Assembly: GCA_964016885.1 (NCBI GenBank)
Contig: OZ024746.1
Span: 89,466,001-89,530,000, forward strand
Source of the DNA: Eledone cirrhosa
Lineage: Eukaryota
Length of the DNA: 64,000 nucleotides
Direction: 5' to 3'
Part shown: positions 1 to 63,915 of the stretch, in pieces
Position numbering within the stretch: position 1 is the first letter of the stretch
Layout: each line of letters begins with the position of its first letter
Notes under the pieces: generated by a model
Databases searched by the model: none
Told to the model about the DNA's origin: nothing
What the model saw: only the letters and a program-made list of their open reading frames with translations
Position numbers and translations under genes: made by a program

Positions 1-555
1 CGGATCCAACTATCACCTGGCTCCATCGTTAAGTTCGCTCCGCCGCCTTCCGTTAAATGGAATGAACAGTCAGTTACTATAAACCTGGTGATCATCGTGA
101 AAGACGTCCTGTCGTGGACCGTTTAAAAGGGTTGAAACCAATTAATTTCCACTTCGCCGCAACTTTAATTAACCTTTTCAGGTTTCTGTTGTATACGAAA
201 ATGTGGATGGAGAAAAAGTCCTGCACTCCAAACAGTTTGATGAAATGTGGGTGAGTGTGCCGAACATGATCCGAGTGTTTGGAACTGTTCTGTGGATTTG
301 AGGAAAACTGAGAGGGGGCACTTTGTCTATCAATCAGGGTAATCGTGAACATTTGTAGCCTTTCCCGAAGTGTGAGCTACGCAGGTATTTCCCTGGAAAT
401 CTTTTTAAAAAATAGTTTAAACTTTTATTTCTTTTCGACTTTGTTAAAATGTTTTACCACACAATAACAGACATTGTTTAGTCATGTACCGTCCTGTGTG
501 TTCTTTATTTATTGTTTAATGTCGGCTCCCTGTAGCTAATATACAAACGATTATT
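1..555 (+). mobile_element. Old 3' end of a Tx1/L1-clade LINE (related to 1054-3605)
   Basis: Translates RIQLSPGSIVKFAPPPS...VKDVLSWT/LKGLKP, colinear with RIRLSAESIVRIAPPSS...WWTRLKGLKT at 3047-3190. The 3' UTR motif tgtaccgtcctgt is shared, and a short att tail follows. Confidence 0.75.
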
Positions 556-10192: not shown

Positions 10193-10578
10193 TAATAGAT
10201 TAACAGAGAAAGCTTTAAGCAATGCTCTGACCGGCTTCCGTCTCACTCAACAAACATTAGGATATACCTTAGTATAATCCCAATTATACGTTTGGGGTGC
10301 TAACTATACGTATTTTGCGGATAGCCAGTTGTATTAATTTATATGAGACATAATTAAAATACATATTGTGAAAATAGCATATATTTTCACAAGCTCTGAC
10401 AGTTTGGCAGGTGAAGAGTGAGCTGTACTGATGAAGGGTGATACACAGAAACATTAGTGTCTGCAGTTCTGTTCGCATTCCAACACAAGAGCAAGAATGA
10501 GGTTTTCATTCTACTGACATGGCTATAAAATTGAGGCTTGTTTGCATAACTGCAAACGAATCGAATGTTATTATTAAT

Positions 10579-15592: not shown

Positions 15593-15781
15593 TGCGGTGG
15601 ATTGGCAGTATCGGTAGATGGTCGGACGCCATGCTTTGACGCATAGAGTTACGGCCCTTGCCATTCTGAGTTCAATTCCCGCCGAGGTTAACTTTGCCTT
15701 TCATCCTTGCAGAGTCGAAAAAATAAAGTACCAGTAATACACTGGGATAATAGCTGGCCTTGTGCCAAAAGTAGAAACAAG
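15593..15781 (+). mobile_element. SINE family 1, full-length short variant
   Basis: tRNA-like head (gcggtggattggcagtatcggtaga...gagttcaattcccgcc) plus the conserved core. Confidence 0.92.
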
Positions 15782-16569
15782 TATCTCTTCATAACAAACT
15801 CACAATCGCTGCAGAGAGTTCAAAACAAGTATATGTCCGATTCAAATTAACCAAATTGAACATTCGTGACAACATGTTTATTCTCTTTCTTAGATGTTTT
15901 TTGAATCATCCAAATGCTTAACTCTCATTCCATTTCCATGTATATCGCATCATATCAAATTATATTCTCTCAGTCTTTTGTTTGTTTGCTTTTGAGTATA
16001 TATATCTCCTACAATAGCATCTAATCCAAGGGATTTTCAGTGTTTTCATTTCTTAATGACTTTCGTAATTACCCCAAACGATATTTCATATACAATTAGT
16101 ACTCCCGCATTGAGTGTTTCATGAATTTTAAAGTCATGTTCTTGATTGTAAGTAAACGTTCTTGTTATTGGTCCAAATTCATTGCTCATCACATGTAATC
16201 TTTTTGATCTCATTACACTGCCTTTAAAAAAATATATTATTTTATAAGACTTTAGATAAGACCAAGTCTCTAAATTTAGAATTTATTAACATTTTCCATT
16301 TCAATTTCAAAGAATGTGTCTAGAACACATTATAGATATCTGTTGAGACTTTTATATATAACTATTTTCAGTTGGAAAGCTATCTTCTTTAAGCAATTAA
16401 CTTGGTTTTGTCCTGTGACTTAATAATTTCCGATATGTTGTACGAGGTAAAGATCATCCCAGTTTATGTTTCATCGGCCGGGAACATATTTGAATACTGT
16501 ATACCTCACATACATTCAAAGTACCAGTAATTCTACATACACTATCGCAGTGATATATGTATATACATG

Positions 16570-23729: not shown

Positions 23730-24112
23730 AGAGAAACTTGTCGGGTCGGACGCCATGCTTTGACGCATTGAGTTACGGCCCTTGCCACTCTGAGATCAAA
23801 TCCCGCCGAGGTTAACGTTGCCTTTCATCCTTACGGGGTCGATAAAATAAAGTATCACTCATGCACTGGTGTTGATTTAATCAACTTTCCCCTCTCCCCA
23901 AATTGCTGGCCTTGTGCCTATATAAGAAACCATTATATATTGGAAGTATCGGTAGAGGGTCGGAAGCCATGCTTTGCAGCAAAGAGTTATGGCCCTTTAA
24001 GGTCTGAGTTCAAATCCCGCCGAGGTTAACTTTGCCTTACGGGGTCGATAAAATAAAGTACCAGTGATACACTTGGATAATTGCTGGCCTTGTGCGAAAA
24101 GTATAAACAATT
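23730..24112 (+). mobile_element. Two tandem SINE family 1 copies (long form 23730-23935, short form 23940-24112)
   Basis: Both contain tcaaatcccgccgaggttaac...ggggtcgataaaataaagta. Confidence 0.9.
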
Positions 24113-24191
24113 ATAAATACAAATATCTCTCTCCCCCTCTCACTTTCTCTCTCTCTCCCTCTCCCTCTCTCTCTCTCTCCCTTTCTCCCTG

Positions 24192-35847: not shown

Positions 35848-36956
35848 CTTTCGCGCGTTTTATTTCTTTTCGGACTTATTTTCTCTCCCATTTCTGCTGA
35901 CCTCTTGTGCTTTTTATTGTTATTATTGTGATTGGTGTTGTATTTGTCATAGACTCCGTTTTCCTTTGAGTATTTCTTCAGCTACGATTAGCGGCAACAT
36001 GGTAGATTGTTGCTGTTTTGTATATATATATATATATGTCTACGTCTTCTCCCCCCTAAATTTCACATTAAAAAAACCTTCTCCGTAATGCCATGTACGA
36101 TAACATGTTAAAACTCGAGCAACCCTCAAAGGACGCTCCTATAATCCTGATCGATTTCACCATATCCTTTGTTTATGTAATGGAAAATACATTCCTCTAC
36201 TCAGACCACGGATATCTGCAAATACAGGAACGGAATCGCCATTCGCTTTGACAGTTGTAATTAATATTTATCCTGGTGCGATTTGTGCAGGTCAAATTCA
36301 GAAACCAGCTTTTCGACCTCTGTTGCTAACAACATATCTCTTTCTCTCTCTTTCTCTCTCTATATATCTATGTAACTCCCTATATGTCTGTCTGTCTTCC
36401 CGGCTCTCTGAATGACTAATTATTATGAAATGTTAGGAATATCGCTTAACTATGCTTTTCTCTTTTGATTTTGCTTCCCCAATCCTTCTTAATATTGCAT
36501 AATATATTTAATAGAATTTCGCACAAATTTTTTTTCCCTTTCTTAAGATAACGATTATGATGAATAATCTTTATATCTTTGAAAATTGTTTCCATGTTCC
36601 AATTAATATTTTCAGAAATGGCATTACGATCTTATAGTAAAAATGCCATTATCTTCATTGATGTTATTCATTATCAACGCGAAATTGAAAGCCTAATGCA
36701 AATACATGCCAAAAGTATTGAAAATATTAATGAAAGGTAGTAAGTAGCATAAATCAACAATGAATGTATACTTAATTATATATGAAGCAATCATAATAAA
36801 GTACAGTTTAGAGCAAATATAAACAAACAAAAAACAACAAAGAACAATCAAACAATATGAAATAGAAAATCCTTTCGTTAAGTTATGAAGAACATATGTC
36901 CATTACAACGTTACATTTTATTTTAGTCTATAGATCAATCTCAGTCTTTTTTATTA

Positions 36957-37138
36957 ATTGTTTCTACTGTTTGGCACAAGGCCAGCAATTAACCAGTGCA
37001 TTACTGGTACTTTATTTCATCGACCCCGTAAGGATGAAAGGCAAAGTTAACCTCGGCCGCATTTGAACTGAGAATGGCAGGGGTCGTAACTCTATGCGTC
37101 AAAGCATGGCATCCGACCCTCTACCGATACTGCCAATC
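36957..37138 (-). mobile_element. SINE family 1, short variant
   Basis: Reverse complement of the 15593-15781 type. Confidence 0.92.
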
Positions 37139-37579
37139 CTTAGCCATTTTTTTTGTTAATGACTGTCCACCAGTATCTTTGTATCTCTATCTTTATCTAT
37201 CGACCTTTCTTTTGTATGTCTGTATGTCTGTCTCTTTTGAGTTGCATATGTATGCATAATGTATATATATTTGGGATGTATATGTGTGTGTGCGCAGTTT
37301 AGTTATCTCGTTATCTCTCAAACACTCATGTCAATAATAGAAAAGCTGATGAATACAAAAGAATAAATCACCAATTGCGCCCTGTAAGTTTACCCCTCCA
37401 TAGGGGACACACAACAGTAAATATTATTAGTAATTAACGCACATTCATCTTCATTTAAACCGTAATGACTCAATGAGTCGTAGGGGCTCCATATTGACAT
37501 ATGACGTACCTAGGGCATTTTTAAAACATGGTGGATCCCAGCCCTTCTCCAAGTTCAAAGAGAAGTATAATGAGTGCCT

Positions 37580-39060: not shown

Positions 39061-39241
39061 ATATAAACACCAAAGGGAAGGTATCGATGACACCATGCGT
39101 TAATATACACCTCAGAACATAGGCGTCCATGTGTAAATTCAGGCGTGTACATCAATGTTCATGCAGACGTGTGAACCTATACGGTAGGCTCTTGCTTTTC
39201 ATCAATATTATATATGAGAAAGTTGGAAAGTTGGAAAGTAG

Positions 39242-39425
39242 GGCGGTGGATTGGCAGTATCGGTAGAGGGTCGGGACGCCATGCTTTGAGTTACCTCCCT
39301 TTATGATCTGAGTTCAAATCCCGCCGAGGTTAACTTTGCCTTTCATCCTTACGGGGTCGATAAAATAAAGTACCAGTAATACACTGGGATAATTGCTGGC
39401 CTTGTGCCAAAAGTAGAAACAATTA
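39242..39425 (+). mobile_element. SINE family 1, short variant
   Basis: ggcggtggattggcagtatcggtagagggtcgg...gttcaaatcccgccgagg... Confidence 0.92.
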
Positions 39426-39533
39426 TATATGAGAAAGTTTGTCACAAATTGTTCTTTTATGAATTATATTACATCTTTTCTCACGGGTTGTTAAATATTG
39501 TGCATTGGAAACCAAAATAAAAGGAAGTATCAC

Positions 39534-39816: not shown

Positions 39817-40345
39817 TAAAACATAAGTGACAATAAAATAAAATCCAAACAAAGAAACGCTGCATTCATTCCATAGTGTTTACGTCAGTTATTAAGACGG
39901 CGCCAAGATATTTCAGCATCATTTTGTTTTCCCGTAATGATCTTCCTGTTGCATTTTTGCTACATACTTCCTGAAATCAATAAACTATTAATTCAATAGA
40001 CAAGCTGTCTACTCCTTCATAAAATGATATGAGATTCGTAAAGCCATAGTTAATGGTTAATAATCTCAACAGAGATGTGTATCATGTAAGGTAGTTATTA
40101 ATATATTGGAAAATACGTGATATAATTAATGTATTGCATATGTAGTGGATGGTCTGATTGGATATATAAATATTCAGAGGGATAGATTGATTGGGGAATT
40201 AAATAAAGCATAAACATGAACAAATATTTCACATATACGCATACACAATCGCAAGCATTTATACACGCAATCATCCGTGCGAAGACATGTTCGTTAGCAT
40301 CTTTTTTAAAGCGGAGAGAAACACGATTTATAATATATTACACAA

Positions 40346-40528
40346 CTGTTTCTACTTTAGGCACAAGGTCAGCAAATTACCCAGTGCATTACTGGTACTT
40401 TATTTTATCGACCTCGTAAGGATGAAAGGCAAAGTCAACCTCGGTGGGATTTGAACTCAGATCGTAAAGGGACGTAACTATGCTGGAAAGCATGGTGTCC
40501 GACCCTCTACCGATACTGCCAATCCACC
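40346..40528 (-). mobile_element. SINE family 1, short variant
   Basis: Reverse complement of the family core and head. Confidence 0.9.
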
Positions 40529-40668: not shown

Positions 40669-40970
40669 TAGAATTGGTGCTCTAAAATAGCGATATATAT
40701 ATGAATGTATATATATAGTGCATTTTGCAATACACGGTATGCTTAATTAAAAACATTTCGAAGACCTTACGCTATTTTTTTAGAGTAGTAAAAGTCTCAC
40801 TTACTTTATATTTTCAGCAAACAGGGGAGATAAAGCTGAGAGAGCTCTGTCAGCTTTATCTCCCCTGTTTGCTGAAAATTTAAAACAATAGCGTAAGGTC
40901 TTCGAAATGCTTTTAATTAAGCATACAGTGTATTTCAAAATACACTGTATATACATTCATATATATATAT
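40669..40970. mobile_element. Fold-back element, family C (~275-bp spacerless palindrome with one indel)
   Basis: Centre at 40844/40845 (agag|ctct); inner arms 40810-40879. The outer arms carry an HHR-like 3' half GAAA-TGCTT..AAGCA-TA. Confidence 0.85.

Positions 40971-42028: not shown

Positions 42029-42036
<8 letters not shown>
41872..42036 (-). mobile_element. Fold-back element, family H (tail + 31-bp arms)
   Basis: Arms 41965-41995 and 42006-42036. The tail is homologous to 16769-16868 (inverted) and to 39659-39685. Confidence 0.7.
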
Positions 42037-42092
<56 letters not shown>

Positions 42093-42095
<3 letters not shown>

Positions 42096-42311
42096 GTGGA
42101 ACACTGGAGGGTAATATCGTAGTGGTAGAGCACTCAGTCCATGGGACGAGTTAGGTAGAAGTGGTTACACAACAGTTAGTTCACCATACCGAGAACAATT
42201 GTTTCACCTTAGCTGATCCTCAGCTCGGAATCATGATTCCCAGCGGAGGATCCGCTAAGGTGAAACAATTGTTCTCGGTATGGTGTACTAACTGTTGTGT
42301 AACCACTTCTA
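42093..42311 (-). mobile_element. Fold-back element, family B, with hammerheads on both strands
   Basis: 63-bp tail plus 78-bp arms (42156-42233, 42234-42311) with no spacer; in (TA)n. Confidence 0.9.
42189..42228 (-). ncRNA. Minimal type I hammerhead ribozyme motif
   Basis: CCGAG-CUGAGGA-UCAGCUAAGGU-GAAAC-AAUU-GUU-CUCGG: 5-bp stem I, intact core, palindromic stem III, weak stem II. Confidence 0.7.
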
Positions 42312-43060
42312 TATATATAAATATTTGTGTTTGTGTGTGCATGAAGGTGTCATAAACATTGATGACAAACACAACAGTAGGGCGTCGGTGCATCTGGCGT
42401 GACTGTCATATGCAGTCCATTGCATTATCAACACAAATACTATTCGTAGACAGAACATAATAGTTAGGATTAAAAATATTGTACTTTTATTAACACAAAA
42501 CTTTCAAGCTAATGCTTATACTTATATCCATACATGGGATTACCCCACAGATGCAAATTTTCTGTAGTTTAAAACCACATTAGATGATCTTTTCAATTTT
42601 CATCCACTTAGGATAATTTACTTAATGAAATACCGCGTGTCAATCAAACATTAGATACCATTTAAAAGTACACCCTAGCACAGAAGGATAGAATCAATTC
42701 CGGCACGCTGTTACTAAAGAAGCTACAACTAGGAAATATCCTGGAAGTATAAATTTCGTATTGTAGAACAAAACAAATTCGTATACTACATCGAAGAACG
42801 TAACCTGGTTATAGAATATATGAACACGTGGTTACAAAAAAAAACAAAAAAAACAAAACAATCGAAACAAAACACACTATACATCGACTTAAGCACAAAT
42901 GATTAGTTAGAATATACTAGAAAAATAATATATTGTTAAACTTCCTCGTCAACAATTAACCAGATGCTGTTAAACCAAAGACTGATAATCAGAGAATACG
43001 CTGCACAATTGTTAACTTAATGACTCATTGTTTCATAGGCTACACATAGATGACACTTAC

Positions 43061-45522: not shown

Positions 45523-46181
45523 GTCACCGTATCATTTACGTACTTATACCTCTTAAAAGGGTCCTTGCCTCTTCCGTCCCACCTAGTTCTTTTACTTATT
45601 TCGTTATTTCTTTATTTCTTTCTTTACTTCTTTCTTTCTTTATTTATTTATTTATTCTAGCCTAACAATAGCTAGAGACTTAGGTCGTAGAATTTAATTT
45701 ACTTTACTTTTTTCTTTACACTTATTTGCTTTTCTTCACTCTCAGTATTTTTTCTTTCCTATATATTTCTACCCCCCATTGTTCTACCTACCGTTCCGAC
45801 TTCCTCCCCCTCCCCCCCCTGTATCTTCTTTGACCTCATGCCCAGCTGTAGCTGGCACTACCAACGCTTGATTGGGTCTACTCCACCCCCTCCCCTCTTT
45901 CTCCTACTGGCAGGTTTAGCCACCATCTCCCCTACTAATTTGCAATCACAGAATTACTACTGACTTTTGACAATCACTTTGACCATATATGGAATTACCC
46001 CTTGAGAAGATCGGCTATATAAATACCAGGATAAATTTTCATTTAGTCCAGAATTAGCCGTCGAAACGGCTTGAGCTCAGCTGTCGGGGTCTTACTGGTT
46101 CCTATTACCCACTCTACTACCTCAAGTATTGAGTACTTTGGTGCGTTATGGTACACCTGGTTCCTTACCACATTTCCTCCG

Positions 46182-50090: not shown

Positions 50091-50095
50091 TATAT

Positions 50096-50283
50096 AATTG
50101 TTTCTACTTTTGGCACAAGGCCAGTAATTATTCCAGTGTATTACTGGTACTTCATCTTATCGACCCCGTAAGGATGAAAGGCAAAGTTAACCTCGGCGGG
50201 ATTTGAACTCAGACCGTAAAGGGACGTAACTATACTGGAAAGCATGGCGTCCGACTCTCTACCGATACTGCCAAACCACCGCC
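50096..50283 (-). mobile_element. SINE family 1, short variant
   Basis: Reverse complement of the family consensus. Confidence 0.92.
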
Positions 50284-51357
50284 CTATATAATGTACGTAT
50301 ATAATGTTTATATGCATATGTGCATGTATGTATGTGTGCCTGTATAAATGTATATATGTTTATTATGTATAGCTTAGTATATATACATTCTTAGAATATA
50401 CACAATGTATAAACAACCACATTCCTTTAACTTTCAGTTTTCTTTTACATACTTGCAGACATACATATATTATATGTACTATACTCACTAAAACATATTT
50501 GTCTTACATAGTTATAAACTGGGAAATAATTCTAATCCTCTAAATCCCGTAATAAATAATTGGAACTCGGGACATATAATCCCTTCAGTGCATCACTTAA
50601 GTTGTCAATTTAAAGTATTGCTTCAAATATATATTCTCGGGTTATCTCTGATAGATCTTGAATCGTCTGCCATCCATAGCAATTTCACCGTTTTGATGCC
50701 TTATAATAAATGTTATGCTCACTGGGGATCACAGTCAATCATAGTACTTACTATATCAAATAGATCATCACTCTGACTACATTTTATGCCCTTAAAGTCG
50801 ATAAATTCACTCATAACCAACAAGAAACCATTAATTATTTATATTAATATTAAACATAATTCATTTTATTAGCCATGAATCCGTTACACCTCAGTCTATA
50901 TTTTAGTATTCTTTATTTGAAAGATTAGCAAGCCAAATATTACGATTTACCCAATATTTTATATACTTCATTAAACACTTGAATGAACATCGATATTAAA
51001 TTAATGACATACAATAATTGATACAGATCACTGAGATATATTATCTACTAATTATTATTTACATTTATTATAGCGTGAAATCATAAACGGTTCATCGATA
51101 TATATCTGTTTGTTTGTTTACTGATTTTGTAATTACAGAAAAGTTTAACCAACCGTTTTTTAAATATGGCTTTTGTGGGAGTTATTTCACCTTAGTAATG
51201 AACTGTCATATTCTCATCTAGCATAGATTTGTTTTCTTCAACACTAATTAATATAAAATATATTGATTATCATATATTCACGACTGTACTCATGCGGAAA
51301 GTGAATCTTGAAACAGTAACCAATATTTTTATTCTTAATAAAAACGCATACATACGT

Positions 51358-51799: not shown

Positions 51800-52071
51800 T
51801 AAGTTTTGTCTTTCATCCTGACGGATTTCGATAAAATAAAGTACCAGTAATGCACTGAGATATTTGCTGGCCTTGTGCCAAAAGTAGAAACAATTATTAA
51901 TATTATGATTATTACGGTGAATTGGCAGTATCGGGAGCGGGTCGGATGCTTTGACGCTTAGAGTTACGGCCCTTGCCATTCTGAGTTCAAATCCCGCCGA
52001 GGTTAACTTTGCCTTTCATCCTTACGGGGTCGATAAAATAAAGTACCAGTAATGTACTGAGTAATTGCTGG
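51800..52071 (+). mobile_element. Two tandem SINE family 1 copies (3' half, then 3'-truncated)
   Basis: Core motif at 51808-51898 and 51915-52071. Confidence 0.9.
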
Positions 52072-52335
52072 CCATCCTGGTGACGAGGCCTTCCCAGCTT
52101 AGTTGGGATTTCATTTGCAGGCCTCGATACTGGTAACCTCCGCCGGTTCAAAGTCTTCAACATTGGTGACAAAATCACTTTAGTTGATGTTGAGGATGGT
52201 GTGAAGGCAGCGTTGAGGAAGCACTCGAAGAGTCGAAGGTTGTGATTATAAGAGACTCACGACTCTGAGCAACATAGCTCTATACACTACGATCTGCTGT
52301 ATTCAGGCCTGGAGAGGAATAGGATCCACCAGCTT
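52072..52335 (-). mobile_element. RTE-clade LINE C-terminal fragment
   Basis: IVVYRAMLL...QRCLHTILNIN*SDFVTNVE..AEVTSIEA...WEGLVTRM. Confidence 0.8.
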
Positions 52336-52429: not shown

Positions 52430-52620
52430 GGCGATAAATTGGCAGTATCGGTAGAAGGTCGGACGCCATACATTGATGCGTAGAGTTACGGCCGTCGCCA
52501 TTCTGAGTTCAAATCTCGCCGAGGTTAAATTTGCATTTCATCCTTACGGGGTCGAATAAATAAAGTACCAGTAATACATTGGTGAATTGTTGGCCTTGTG
52601 CCAAATAGTATGAACAGTTA
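52430..52620 (+). mobile_element. SINE family 1, short variant
   Basis: Head and core match the family. Confidence 0.9.
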
Positions 52621-53379: not shown

Positions 53380-55418
53380 GAGCGGATATTCGATGAACAT
53401 GCGCCTTATTACAACCAGGCCCTCAAGCGGAGTGGTTTCCGGGAAGAAATATCCTACTGTCCAGCTCCCATTAGCGGAACCAGCAGGAGACACCGCCGCT
53501 CACGCAATGTAACATGGTTCAATCCTCCGCACAACGCAGAGGTGACAACTCCCATCGGGAAACTATTCTTTAGGCTCATTGAAAAAAAATTTCCCACTAC
53601 AACACAGCTACCACAACATAATTAACAAAAATACCATCAAACTCTCTTACAGCACTACACCAAACTTCGCACAAAACATCGTCTCCTCTAACAACAAAAA
53701 ACTCAACCCCGATGGCAGAAATAACCTAAATAGCAGTGGAGAACCGACCAGGAGGTGTAACTGTCCGGATAGATCCATTTGCCCACTCGACAATAGATGC
53801 AGAGACCGTAATGTGATCTACCAGTGCAAGGTGAGGACGGATACCTCCAACAAAGCCTATATAGGACTTACCGCATGTGACTTCAAGACCCGGCTATACC
53901 AACATAGACATACCTTCCGAAACCCGGCCCGGCATCACGCCACTACACTTTCGGGCCACATATGGGACCTCAAGGACAACAACATCACCTATGATCTCAC
54001 TTGGAGATTACTGTCCAGAGCCAATTCTTACACGGGAGGACGCCGTCCGTGCAATTTATGCTCGGAGGAAACTTTACAAATGCTGTTTTCGATGGACCAA
54101 CTCCTAAACAAGAAAGATGAACTGGTTACTGCATGTAAACATAGATTGCGTAGGACTTACCTCGCCTTCAAACCCCATAATGACCCGGGGGGGGGGGGGG
54201 GGGGGGTAGACTAGGGCTATAACCCCCCACTTGCCGATTTTGCAATGGGTAACCCCTGCTTGCCAAGGGAGACGTAAGATCTTCTTTTTATTCTTTTATC
54301 GCTTCCTTTATTTCCTTCCCCACATCCCTCATTAGTCCTTCTACCCCAGCTCTTCTTCTTTGTCGGCGTCTTTTCTCACCCACCCGAGGCTGCCCTTTGG
54401 CCCCTTGTAGCCTTAGTACCCCCACCCCTCCCCTAGTCTATGATAGATTTGGCGGACTCCGCTTTTAATAGCAGTTGGTTTAGACCCCGGATACTTGCCC
54501 CCTTTTTTCGACCACTCCCACTATTTTCTGTGCCTTCTATATTTCTTAGTGGCACTATGCCTTATTTTCTCGTTTCAGTATTTCTTTCTTCGCTTTTCTT
54601 TTGGGCGGGGTGGATTCTGAATTTATTTTTCCGTATTCTACCTTTACTTCGTACGAACTTTCATGTAGCTTGTTTAAGGTCTTTTAGAGTTAGCATTAGT
54701 ATATATTTTTTTCGGGACTCAGAATTATTATCTCGTACTAGTTTACTTTGCACTGGGTGGTTGCTGGCATTGTGCCCGGGATAGAAACCTTTATTATTTA
54801 TTTCGTGGTAGTCTCTTTAGTATTTTGGCCCCATTTGTTGACCTGTCACCGTATGATTTACGTACTTATACCTCTTAAAAGGGTCCTTGCCTATTCCGTC
54901 CCACCTAGTTCATTTACTTATTTCGTTATTCCTTTATTTCTTTCTTTACTTCTTTCTTTCTTTATTTATTTATTTATCTAGCCTAACAATAGCTAGAGAC
55001 TTAGGTCGTAGAACTTGCTTTACTTTTTTCTTTACACTTATTCGCTTTTCTTCACTCTCAGTATTTTTTCTTTCATATATATTTTTACCCCTCATTGTTC
55101 TACCTACCGTTCCGACTTCCTCCCCCTCCCCCTCCCCAGTATCTTCTTTGACCTCATGCCCAGCTGTAGCTGGCACTACCAACGCTTGATTGGGTCTACT
55201 CCACCCCCTCCCCTCTTTCTCCTACTGGCAGGTTTAGCCACCATCTCCCCTACTAATTTGCAATCACAGAATTACTACTGACTTTTGACAATCACTCTGA
55301 CCATATATGGAATTACCCCTTGAGAAGATCGGCTATATAAATACCAGGATAAAATTTCATTTAGTCCAGAATTAGCCGTCGAAACGGCTTGAGCTCAGCC
55401 GTCGGGGTCTTACTGGTT

Positions 55419-55420
<2 letters not shown>
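53378..55420 (+). mobile_element. 5'-truncated, relatively young PLE (RT thumb end, GIY-YIG, 3' UTR, HHR)
   Basis: NERIFDEHAPYYNQALKRSGF...WFNPP / IKLSYSTTPN...CNC..CPLDNRC..VIYQC..AYIGLT..FKTRLYQH..CNLCSEE. One frameshift near 53585. (TA)n on both sides. Confidence 0.93.
55315..55408 (+). ncRNA. Type I hammerhead, U3-A8 core variant
   Basis: ACCCC-UUGAGAA-GAUCGGCUA...UAGCCGUC-GAAAC-GGCU..AGCC-GUC-GGGGU. Confidence 0.72.
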
Positions 55421-55494
<74 letters not shown>

Positions 55495-60832: not shown

Positions 60833-61047
60833 GTAGAATACTGGAAGGTAATATCCGTAGTGAAAGAGCACGCAGTCCATGGGACGAGTTTGTTAGAAGT
60901 AGTAACACAACAGTTAGTTCACCATACCGAGAACAATTGTTTCACCTTATGCGGATCTTCAGCTCGCAGTCCAGCTAGAGCTGAACATCCGCATTAGGTG
61001 AAACAAATGTTCTCGATATGGTGAACTAACTGGTGTATTACTACTTC

Positions 61048-61050
<3 letters not shown>
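60832..61050 (-). mobile_element. Fold-back element, family B, copy 2
   Basis: Same tail and arms as 42093-42311; arms 60894-60965 and 60978-61049 with a 12-nt loop; in (TA)n. Confidence 0.9.
60928..60966 (-). ncRNA. Minimal type I hammerhead ribozyme motif
   Basis: CGAG-CUGAAGA-UCCGCAUAAGGU-GAAAC-AAUU-GUU-CUCG. Confidence 0.72.
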
Positions 61051-63079: not shown

Positions 63080-63915
63080 TGATTTCTACTCTAGGCACAA
63101 AGCCAGCAATTTGAAAGGGAGAGGAAAGTCTATTAAATCGACTCCAGTACATTACTGGCGCTTTAATTCATCGAGTCCGTAAGGATAAAATGCAAAGCTT
63201 AGCTAGGCGGAATAATTAGAAGTGTGATGGATACCATCTAGAAGAGCAATAAGCAAATCTTATCATCTTAAACTCCGAGATAAAGCCTGATGGTCAGAAG
63301 AAAAAAAACCGGCCATTGATGTCAACACAGAGCAATGATTAAGATAACATTTAACAATACTAATAAATACTAAAAAATAATTGTTTCTACGTTTGGCACA
63401 AGGCCAGCAATTACGCAGTGCATTACTGGTACTTTATTTTATCGACCCCGTAAGGATGAAAGGCAAAGTTAACCTCGGCGGGATTTGAACTCAGAATGGT
63501 AAGGGCCGTAACTCTATACGTCAAAGCATAGCGTCCGACTCTCTACCGATACTACCAGTCCACCACCCTACAATACTAATAAATAATTGTTTCTACATTT
63601 GGCACAAGGCCAGCAATTACCCAGTGCATTACTGGTACTTTATTTTATCGACCCCGTAAGGATGAAAGGCGAAGTTAACCTCGGCGGGATTTGAACTCAG
63701 AATGGCAAGGGCCGTAACTGTAATAATAATAATAATAATGGTTTCTAATTTAGGCACAAGGGCCACAATTTTTGGGGAGGGGAAAGTCCATTAAATCGAC
63801 CAGAGTAGATCACTGGTACTTTATTTTATCGACCCTGTAATGATGAATAACAAAGCTAACCGCGACGAGATTTGAACGCAGAATGTAAAGGGTCGTGGCA
63901 CTATGTCGCAAAGCA
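63080..63915 (-). mobile_element. Cluster of four SINE family 1 copies (63080-63212 long, 63378-63568 short, 63585-63720 short, 63739-63915 long)
   Basis: Each begins tttcta..ggcacaa(a/g)g..ca and contains actgg..cttta.tt.atcga. Confidence 0.92.

Follow-up and report, generated by a model that had tools for sequence, protein, structure and literature searches.

A short hairpin with opposed hammerhead motifs in Eledone cirrhosa is very probably a doubly truncated Penelope-like insertion

The hairpin at 42093-42311 of the window (the whole 64,000-nucleotide stretch of Eledone cirrhosa DNA analysed here) is very probably a head-to-head insertion of a Penelope-like element (PLE), 5'-truncated in both halves and representing the shortest form of a common insertion. 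Its two hammerhead motifs of opposite polarity are likely to be a by-product of that insertion, not the parts of a self-copying viroid-like RNA, and the hairpin itself is most likely a dead end. The family is probably new; the structure of the insertion has already been described for PLEs.

Anatomy of the hairpin

The layout claimed in the first-pass annotation is borne out: a 63-bp tail is followed by two 78-bp arms that meet with no spacer, and (TA)n flanks both sides. The parts, in window coordinates, are these:

42034-42092, no strand: (TA)n array next to the tail, probably the insertion target and primer
42093-42155, minus strand: PLE 'tail' of 63 bp (64 in most copies), the stretch between two family-wide 3' ends
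42156-42233, minus strand: arm 1, a 5'-truncated PLE 3' end (part of the pseudo-LTR), continuous with the tail
42189-42228, minus strand: minimal type I hammerhead motif, core intact; cleavage predicted at 42194/42193; one stem II pair lost at 42214
42229-42238, no strand: fold-back junction, centre 42233/42234, copy-specific
42234-42311, plus strand: arm 2, a second 5'-truncated 3' end, inverted, terminating at the tail-less site
42239-42278, plus strand: decayed hammerhead motif, with U4G at 42245 and a mismatch in stem I at 42241
42310-42319, no strand: short (TA)n on the tail-less side
60833-61049, no strand: copy 2, from another subfamily (minus-strand core CUGAAGA), with a different junction, inside (TA)n

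The arms are complementary at 74 of 78 positions. The minus strand of copy 1 folds with a computed energy of -137 kcal/mol (z -19.9), a value equalled by none of 200 shuffled sequences. Arm 1 matches an ORF-bearing copy of the family (L091) at 96% over the last 76 nt of that copy, and the tail contains the motif TGAGTGCT on the minus strand, ~36 nt from its end. Copy 2 is 84% identical to copy 1, has a different fold-back centre and carries the plus-strand core CUGAACA (G8C). The changes at 42214 and 42245 of copy 1 each make an imperfect 6-bp hairpin within the arm perfect, which looks like quasi-palindrome correction; the change at 42214 is also seen in two other copies (L003 and L023), at other junctions.

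Family size and sampling

The hairpin belongs to a family of several thousand copies, as judged from exact short-pattern matches across the 3.0-Gb genome (1,796 contigs). A 20-mer from the tail matches 3,873 times, the hammerhead arm 2,949, the stretch just past the fold-back point 1,735 and the tail-less end plus TA 1,559, while reversed control patterns give 0 matches. Searching with the whole element gave 1,657 first-look candidates; 40 of them were scored. The best 30 copies have both outer ends in common and differ in their centres, and it was the surplus bases at the longer centres that led to the parent element.

Selecting these 30 copies by likeness to the whole hairpin overstates their uniformity, so two further samples of the family were drawn, one anchored in the tail and one at the tail-less end. 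The tail-anchored set consists of the first 92 retrievable tail-pattern matches on contig C1. The hairpin counts given below come from such samples, which are drawn from the first part of one contig with exact-match anchors and favour some subfamilies. Within 240 nt, 37 of the 92 tail-anchored copies fold back, making short hairpins the commonest two-armed form; 12 fold back further out and 43 have no inverted arm within the stretch examined. Arm lengths form a continuum from <30 bp to >2 kb and up to full-length PLEs. Four loci (L094, L141, L087 and L089) are arranged otherwise, some with tails at both outer ends, others with a tail on either the short arm or the long one.

The parent element

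The link to PLEs drawn in the first-pass annotation holds: longer copies continue from the same arm into an ORF with a reverse transcriptase (RT) and a GIY-YIG domain at its C-terminus. One such copy (L091) consists of the tail, a 155-bp inverted arm and a 2.07-kb sense body with a YRDD RT and a GIY-YIG-type domain, and ends at the tail-less site. Another (L219) is a complete partial tandem, pseudo-LTR (pLTR)-tail-ORF-pLTR, whose hammerheads lie 2,537 bp apart, giving a unit of 2,537 bp. At L218-L221 and L141 the tail continues into the 5' region of the ORF. The tail thus runs towards the ORF, which makes the hammerhead strand the coding strand and copy 1 a pair of outward-facing 3' ends.

The protein has 121 unnamed homologues, the best being ~700 aa long with 40-54% identity, and these bear the precomputed labels PF26215 and PF28514. 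One homologue (P0002) is 46% identical to the RT piece of L220; its structural model has a pLDDT of 82, and telomerase RT (TERT) is the top fold match (E 6e-8). Sequence searches of the ORF pieces and five homologues against Pfam and PDB named no domain, and the C-terminal domain is putatively assigned to the GIY-YIG type by a reading of its motifs. SDKT, CSCRKPEAC, CGLC and CPH are present in L091, L094 and L220. The position of the RWK motif reads RWR in L218 and L219 and RGR in L220; it is RWK in 12/12 aligned homologues. A length below 3 kb, the C-terminal endonuclease, DKT, a CxCx5C linker, no CCHH, and CxxC and CxH near the C-terminus are all traits of the Hydra clade, and motifs, length and targets together would place the parent among PLEs of that type. 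Two other, diverged PLE ORFs with similar motifs adjoin family copies (L092, minus, 775-2; L095, minus, 1821-130), so the genome holds several such PLE families.

The course of the arms into an RT ORF also bears on whether the hairpin is a DNA-transposon MITE or a fold-back artefact of assembly. Either would fit a short inverted-repeat element in a TA context, and either is extremely improbable: the repeats are not terminal (the tail is one-sided), the arms of longer copies enter the RT ORF and the arms of copy 1 differ at 4 sites. Contigs from three sequencing runs of one sample each have ~4,000 pieces on the element, with many different joints; none of the pieces listed spans the junction of copy 1 itself, for which these contigs are uninformative either way.

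Hammerhead motifs

Both motifs announced in the first-pass annotation are found. The minus-strand motif (42228-42189) is a minimal type I hammerhead with a 5-bp stem I, CUGAGGA, GAAAC, the palindromic AACAAUUGUU and a GUU cut site; a change private to this copy, at 42214, breaks one of its two stem II pairs. The plus-strand motif (42239-42278) carries U4G at 42245, as claimed, and an additional stem I mismatch at 42241. U4G is private to copy 1 (1/176 arms). Throughout the family, stem II begins with a U.U mismatch.

Within the set of 176 arms, in which some loci were chosen by patterns crossing the core, the hammerhead core is intact in 134 and among core positions N7 alone has a common variant (G in 141, A in 32). 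The arms thus have the CUGANGA / GAAA / UH core and the three stems of a type I hammerhead, with variation limited to free positions. The same architecture with different stem sequences recurs in 7/21 metagenome loci that hold distant homologues (two of the seven being near-identical to each other), and all 7 have U.U at the base of stem II. The conserved core and the shared architecture mark the hammerhead, as a sequence motif, as real and conserved in the parent PLE. Among Rfam models, only those of generic miRNA hairpins match, and no hammerhead does, either at the gathering score or at E<=10.

The suggestion that full arm pairing might act as a folding switch is unsupported. In the full hairpin the stem I pairs have a computed probability of 0, and in this prediction the ribozyme motif is simply buried by arm pairing.

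Three more CUGAUGA...GAAA strings are present in the window, at 10428 (+), 46411 (-) and 37910 (-), with similar stem II sequences. A scan for stem I found none at these sites, and the strings are possibly decayed hammerheads of another repeat.

A replicating unit or a by-product of insertion

The headline option of the first-pass annotation was a tiny ambisense ribozyme retroelement. As a rival reading, the hairpin would be a non-autonomous retrozyme- or viroid-like element transcribed, cut in both polarities and reinserted as a unit by the PLE protein. The abundance of short hairpins (37/92) would suit such an element, as would their retention of the tail and both priming sites, so that a transcript could be a substrate. 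The junctions do not bear it out: 77 hairpins have 71 distinct junction coordinates, none used more than 2 times, and the arms extend continuously up to full PLEs. This set comprises all loci retrieved to that point, minus 7 duplicate loci and 5 hairpins in which the tail side was not callable; its inclusion of the 30 likeness-picked copies biases it towards junction sharing. Three pairs have a common junction at unrelated flanks (L054/L102, L014/L015 and L186/L216), the first also having one base change in common, and these count in favour of a unit; of the three junctions, two are palindromes, at which recurrence is to be expected. The identical junctions of L144/L145 and L048-L050 are accompanied by shared flanks and are therefore duplications.

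The ribozymes argue in the same direction. Two intact cores of opposite polarity occur in only 7/92 tail-anchored copies, and arm pairing buries both motifs. No tandem units, each with a hammerhead, are seen among the mapped loci, though such units define animal retrozymes according to 10.64898/2026.07.22.740005. The copies share neither a junction nor arm-specific changes of the kind that would identify a replicating non-autonomous family: a C-to-A change at the (TA)n edge recurs in 14 hairpins, and no other difference between arms is found in more than 6/77. Differing fold-back points with no shared diagnostic mutations had been named in advance as the mark of a by-product, and the copies largely show this pattern. 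Replication of the hairpin as a unit is therefore very unlikely.

The second option of the first-pass annotation, a recurrent fold-back by-product of PLE insertion, is supported by the copy-specific junctions and the continuum of arm lengths. Of the two arms, one extends to the tail end, and the other stops 63-64 nt inside it, at the inner (tail-less) site. Either arm may be the longer, so neither was copied from the other; each was copied from a full element. The two arms of one copy agree at subfamily sites (N7 in 55/61, with 35.7 expected).

Where the arms stop

For both types of arm the favoured stopping zone is 67-100 nt from the arm end. This zone is just upstream of the hammerhead, away from its cut site, and is what run-off at the 5' end of the RNA would produce. 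Per nt, arms stop at a rate of 0.011-0.022 between 67 and 100 and of 0.001-0.002 past that zone. Of the 62 ends that the tail-anchored set (n=92) has between 11 and 110, 20 lie at 66-78; the best 13-nt window begins at 67 and was matched by 0/300 constant-rate simulations. Thirty of these arm lengths come from BLAST where anchored extension broke at indels, and one duplicated pair is left in. In the tail-less-anchored set (n=70), 16/38 ends between 28 and 110 lie in the preset window 67-79 (p 1.4e-4); some loci are common to both sets, with the opposite arm measured. The arms start 63 nt apart yet stop at the same template position, which places the cause in the template and not in product length. 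Tail arms are shorter, with 57/76 ending by 110 as against 38/70 (p 0.01), a comparison in which the two anchors select differently. A palindrome lies 115-125 nt upstream, GCGCATGCGC being the commonest form among 84 arms; it may resemble an NRF-1 promoter site.

If the arms ended where the hammerhead cuts the template RNA, they would be a footprint of self-cleavage, and one copy (L124 = L169, length 38) does have an arm ending exactly at the predicted cut site. This reading is rejected as barely credible: neither set has an excess of ends at that site (38), with 2/92 at 36-40, a rate below background, and 0/70. The peak lies 30-40 nt upstream of the cut, and for the Anolis PLE PMC11167929 reports uncut RNA as the main template. 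A spliced template, with an intron ending at stem I (cf. Penelope of D. virilis), was also considered and discarded, since no arm jumps from ~68 to a common upstream site.

A different account of the truncation step, compatible with a by-product of PLE insertion, is that the junctions pile up through annealing of cDNAs at self-complementary motifs of the hammerhead region, or through stalling of the RT on RNA structure or bound protein, with no RNA 5' end involved. Sub-peaks fall on the palindromes AACAATTGTT (48), AGCT (70) and TATA (89), so cDNA annealing may explain much of the pile-up, and one copy (L124) is joined through the stem I complement. On the other hand, partnerless single arms also stop at 67-89 and then continue in (TA)n, the stopping rate falls ~tenfold past 100, and the region folds weakly (z -1.8). 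The chances of this account are close to even, if slightly short of it.

Targets, (TC)n runs and priming ends

Most ends directly adjoin (TA)n (114/156 tail ends and 91/126 tail-less ends), and most of the others reach it via (TC)n, which lies between element and array at 19/156 tail ends and 18/126 tail-less ends. The run always reads TC on the sense strand, with 37 TC and 0 GA among 282 ends (e.g. L185, L193, L216 and L030). A pre-existing array would keep its direction across the insertion, which makes reiterative copying at initiation the simplest reading. This suggests that (TC)n is RT stutter at initiation, seeding compound microsatellites; the alternative is later slippage seeded by the terminal TCTC. 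Tail ends in CCTC have (TC)n in 13/22 cases and those in CCAC in 0/98; the CCTC call is partly circular, and L218 and L221 show CCTC to be a true template variant. A (CA)n run is found at one locus (L097).

Just beyond the tail, the family's template has TATATA or a sequence close to it. The inner site likewise ends at UA, and either end could therefore pair with a (TA)n primer. Within the tail, a near-palindromic motif (42127-42134, minus strand, GAGTGCT) lies, wherever the 3' end can be seen, 29-36 nt away from it. It recurs in distant homologue loci (L222-L224, L229, L230, L233 and L241) as GAGCACT in 6/7 and GAGTACT in 1/7, and is a candidate protein-binding site.

A model for the insertion

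It is likely that the PLE protein nicks both strands of a (TA)n array, primes two short cDNAs on its own RNA and has these joined. By analogy with the two RT starts of the Anolis PLE, cDNA 1 would start at the tail end and cDNA 2 at the inner site, each start adjoining a template UA able to pair with the (TA)n primer. In the Anolis element, as the relevant passages of PMC11167929 describe it, two internal RT start sites delimit the tail, both target strands are cut and extended, and a dimer is predicted. The cDNAs would most often stop 67-100 nt from the inner site, probably at the 5' end of a transcript initiated in the pseudo-LTR, and would then be joined head to head, often at short palindromes. 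Since the hammerhead is 33-72 nt from the inner site, it comes along with the cDNAs, and the inversion gives it two polarities.

Initiation of PLE transcripts inside the pLTR is on record in parts of PMC2377424 and PMC6765202. If the start in this family were 70-105 nt upstream of the inner site, short run-off cDNAs would result when the 5' pLTR is primed, and long ones when the 3' pLTR is. With the tail in its 5' copy only, a source such as L219 predicts shorter tail arms. The start in D. virilis, ~120 nt upstream of stem I as given in portions of PMC4209133 and PMC2377424, is further than needed here.

Taken together, the hairpins might form a fossil record in which a dimeric RT-endonuclease primes twice on the 5' pseudo-LTR, runs off, joins the resulting strong-stop-like cDNAs and stutters (TC)n in a telomerase-like manner. 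We put this forward tentatively, as a possibility with less than even prospects. If true, run-off and stutter would cover the inverted repeat, the one-sided tail, the ~100-nt wall, the shorter tail arms and the new compound microsatellites. No description of the truncation wall or of the (TC)n bias was found in the open-access literature.

Other repeats in the window

A second, unrelated hairpin element lies in (TA)n at 40693-40968 (1,778 first-look candidates). Many copies of its family match one half only, some pairs are ~320 bp apart, and a core scan found no hammerhead core in the copy at 40693-40968. It may be a comparable product that derives from another family, or else a MITE. A dispersed repeat of ~190 bp has at least 9 copies (15596-15784, 23743-24119, 36955-37139, 39238-39430, 40344-40528, 50094-50286, 51915-52073, 52438-52620 and 63377-63915) and presumably resembles a tRNA-derived SINE with a Deu/Nin-type domain. 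A 585-bp direct repeat with 96% identity occupies 45523-46105 and 54845-55423.

Significance and comparison with known systems

As an object, copy 1 is ordinary transposon debris. What makes it interesting is the population it belongs to, whose statistics can test models of PLE integration: thousands of copies provide statistics of ends and junctions that bear on how PLEs make inverted structures and target microsatellites, which is an open question in the sections of PMC8557442 that deal with it. There is also a caution, in that hammerheads of both polarities in a rod-like fold can arise in animal DNA without a viroid-like replicon.

The closest likeness is to the Hydra-clade PLEs, as characterised by Craig et al. 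2021 (PMC8557442). These have in common with the parent element a unit of <3 kb, a single RT and C-terminal GIY-YIG ORF, DKT, CxCx5C, no CCHH, CxxC and CxH, together with a hammerhead, (TA)n targets, 5' truncation, an inverted copy and a one-sided tail; inverted 5'-truncated copies with a one-sided tail are thus already in print. The differences are RWR in place of RWK, a tail of 63-64 bp where 30-40 bp is quoted for PLEs, and halves that are here often both so short that the insertion is a pure hairpin.

The Anolis Poseidon PLE PAc likewise has two fixed 3' ends delimiting a tail downstream of the pLTR hammerhead, and AT-rich targets, in the passages of Frangieh et al. 2024 (PMC11167929) on these features. 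PAc belongs to a different clade, and its ORF starts within the hammerhead, whereas the conserved protein start here lies well downstream of the tail. Priming by PAc needs no homology in that account, whereas both ends here sit at UA matching the target.

With the minimal PLE hammerheads of Cervera and de la Pena 2014 (PMC4209133, in the sections describing them), the motifs share the type I form, a short stem I and a palindromic stem III. Stem II here has two pairs opened by U10.1.U11.1, and not G10.1-C11.1; the U10.1.U11.1 variant is known in natural hammerheads, as noted in part of PMC3088659. The same sections of PMC4209133 report minimal hammerhead pairs in Schistosoma, 100-700 bp apart on opposite strands and attributed to truncated PLEs.

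Non-LTR retrozymes and viroid-like circular RNAs resemble the hairpin in being small, non-coding and PLE-derived, with a type I hammerhead. The hairpin, known from DNA alone, differs from them in having no tandem units, no fixed unit junction and a second ribozyme that is not conserved.
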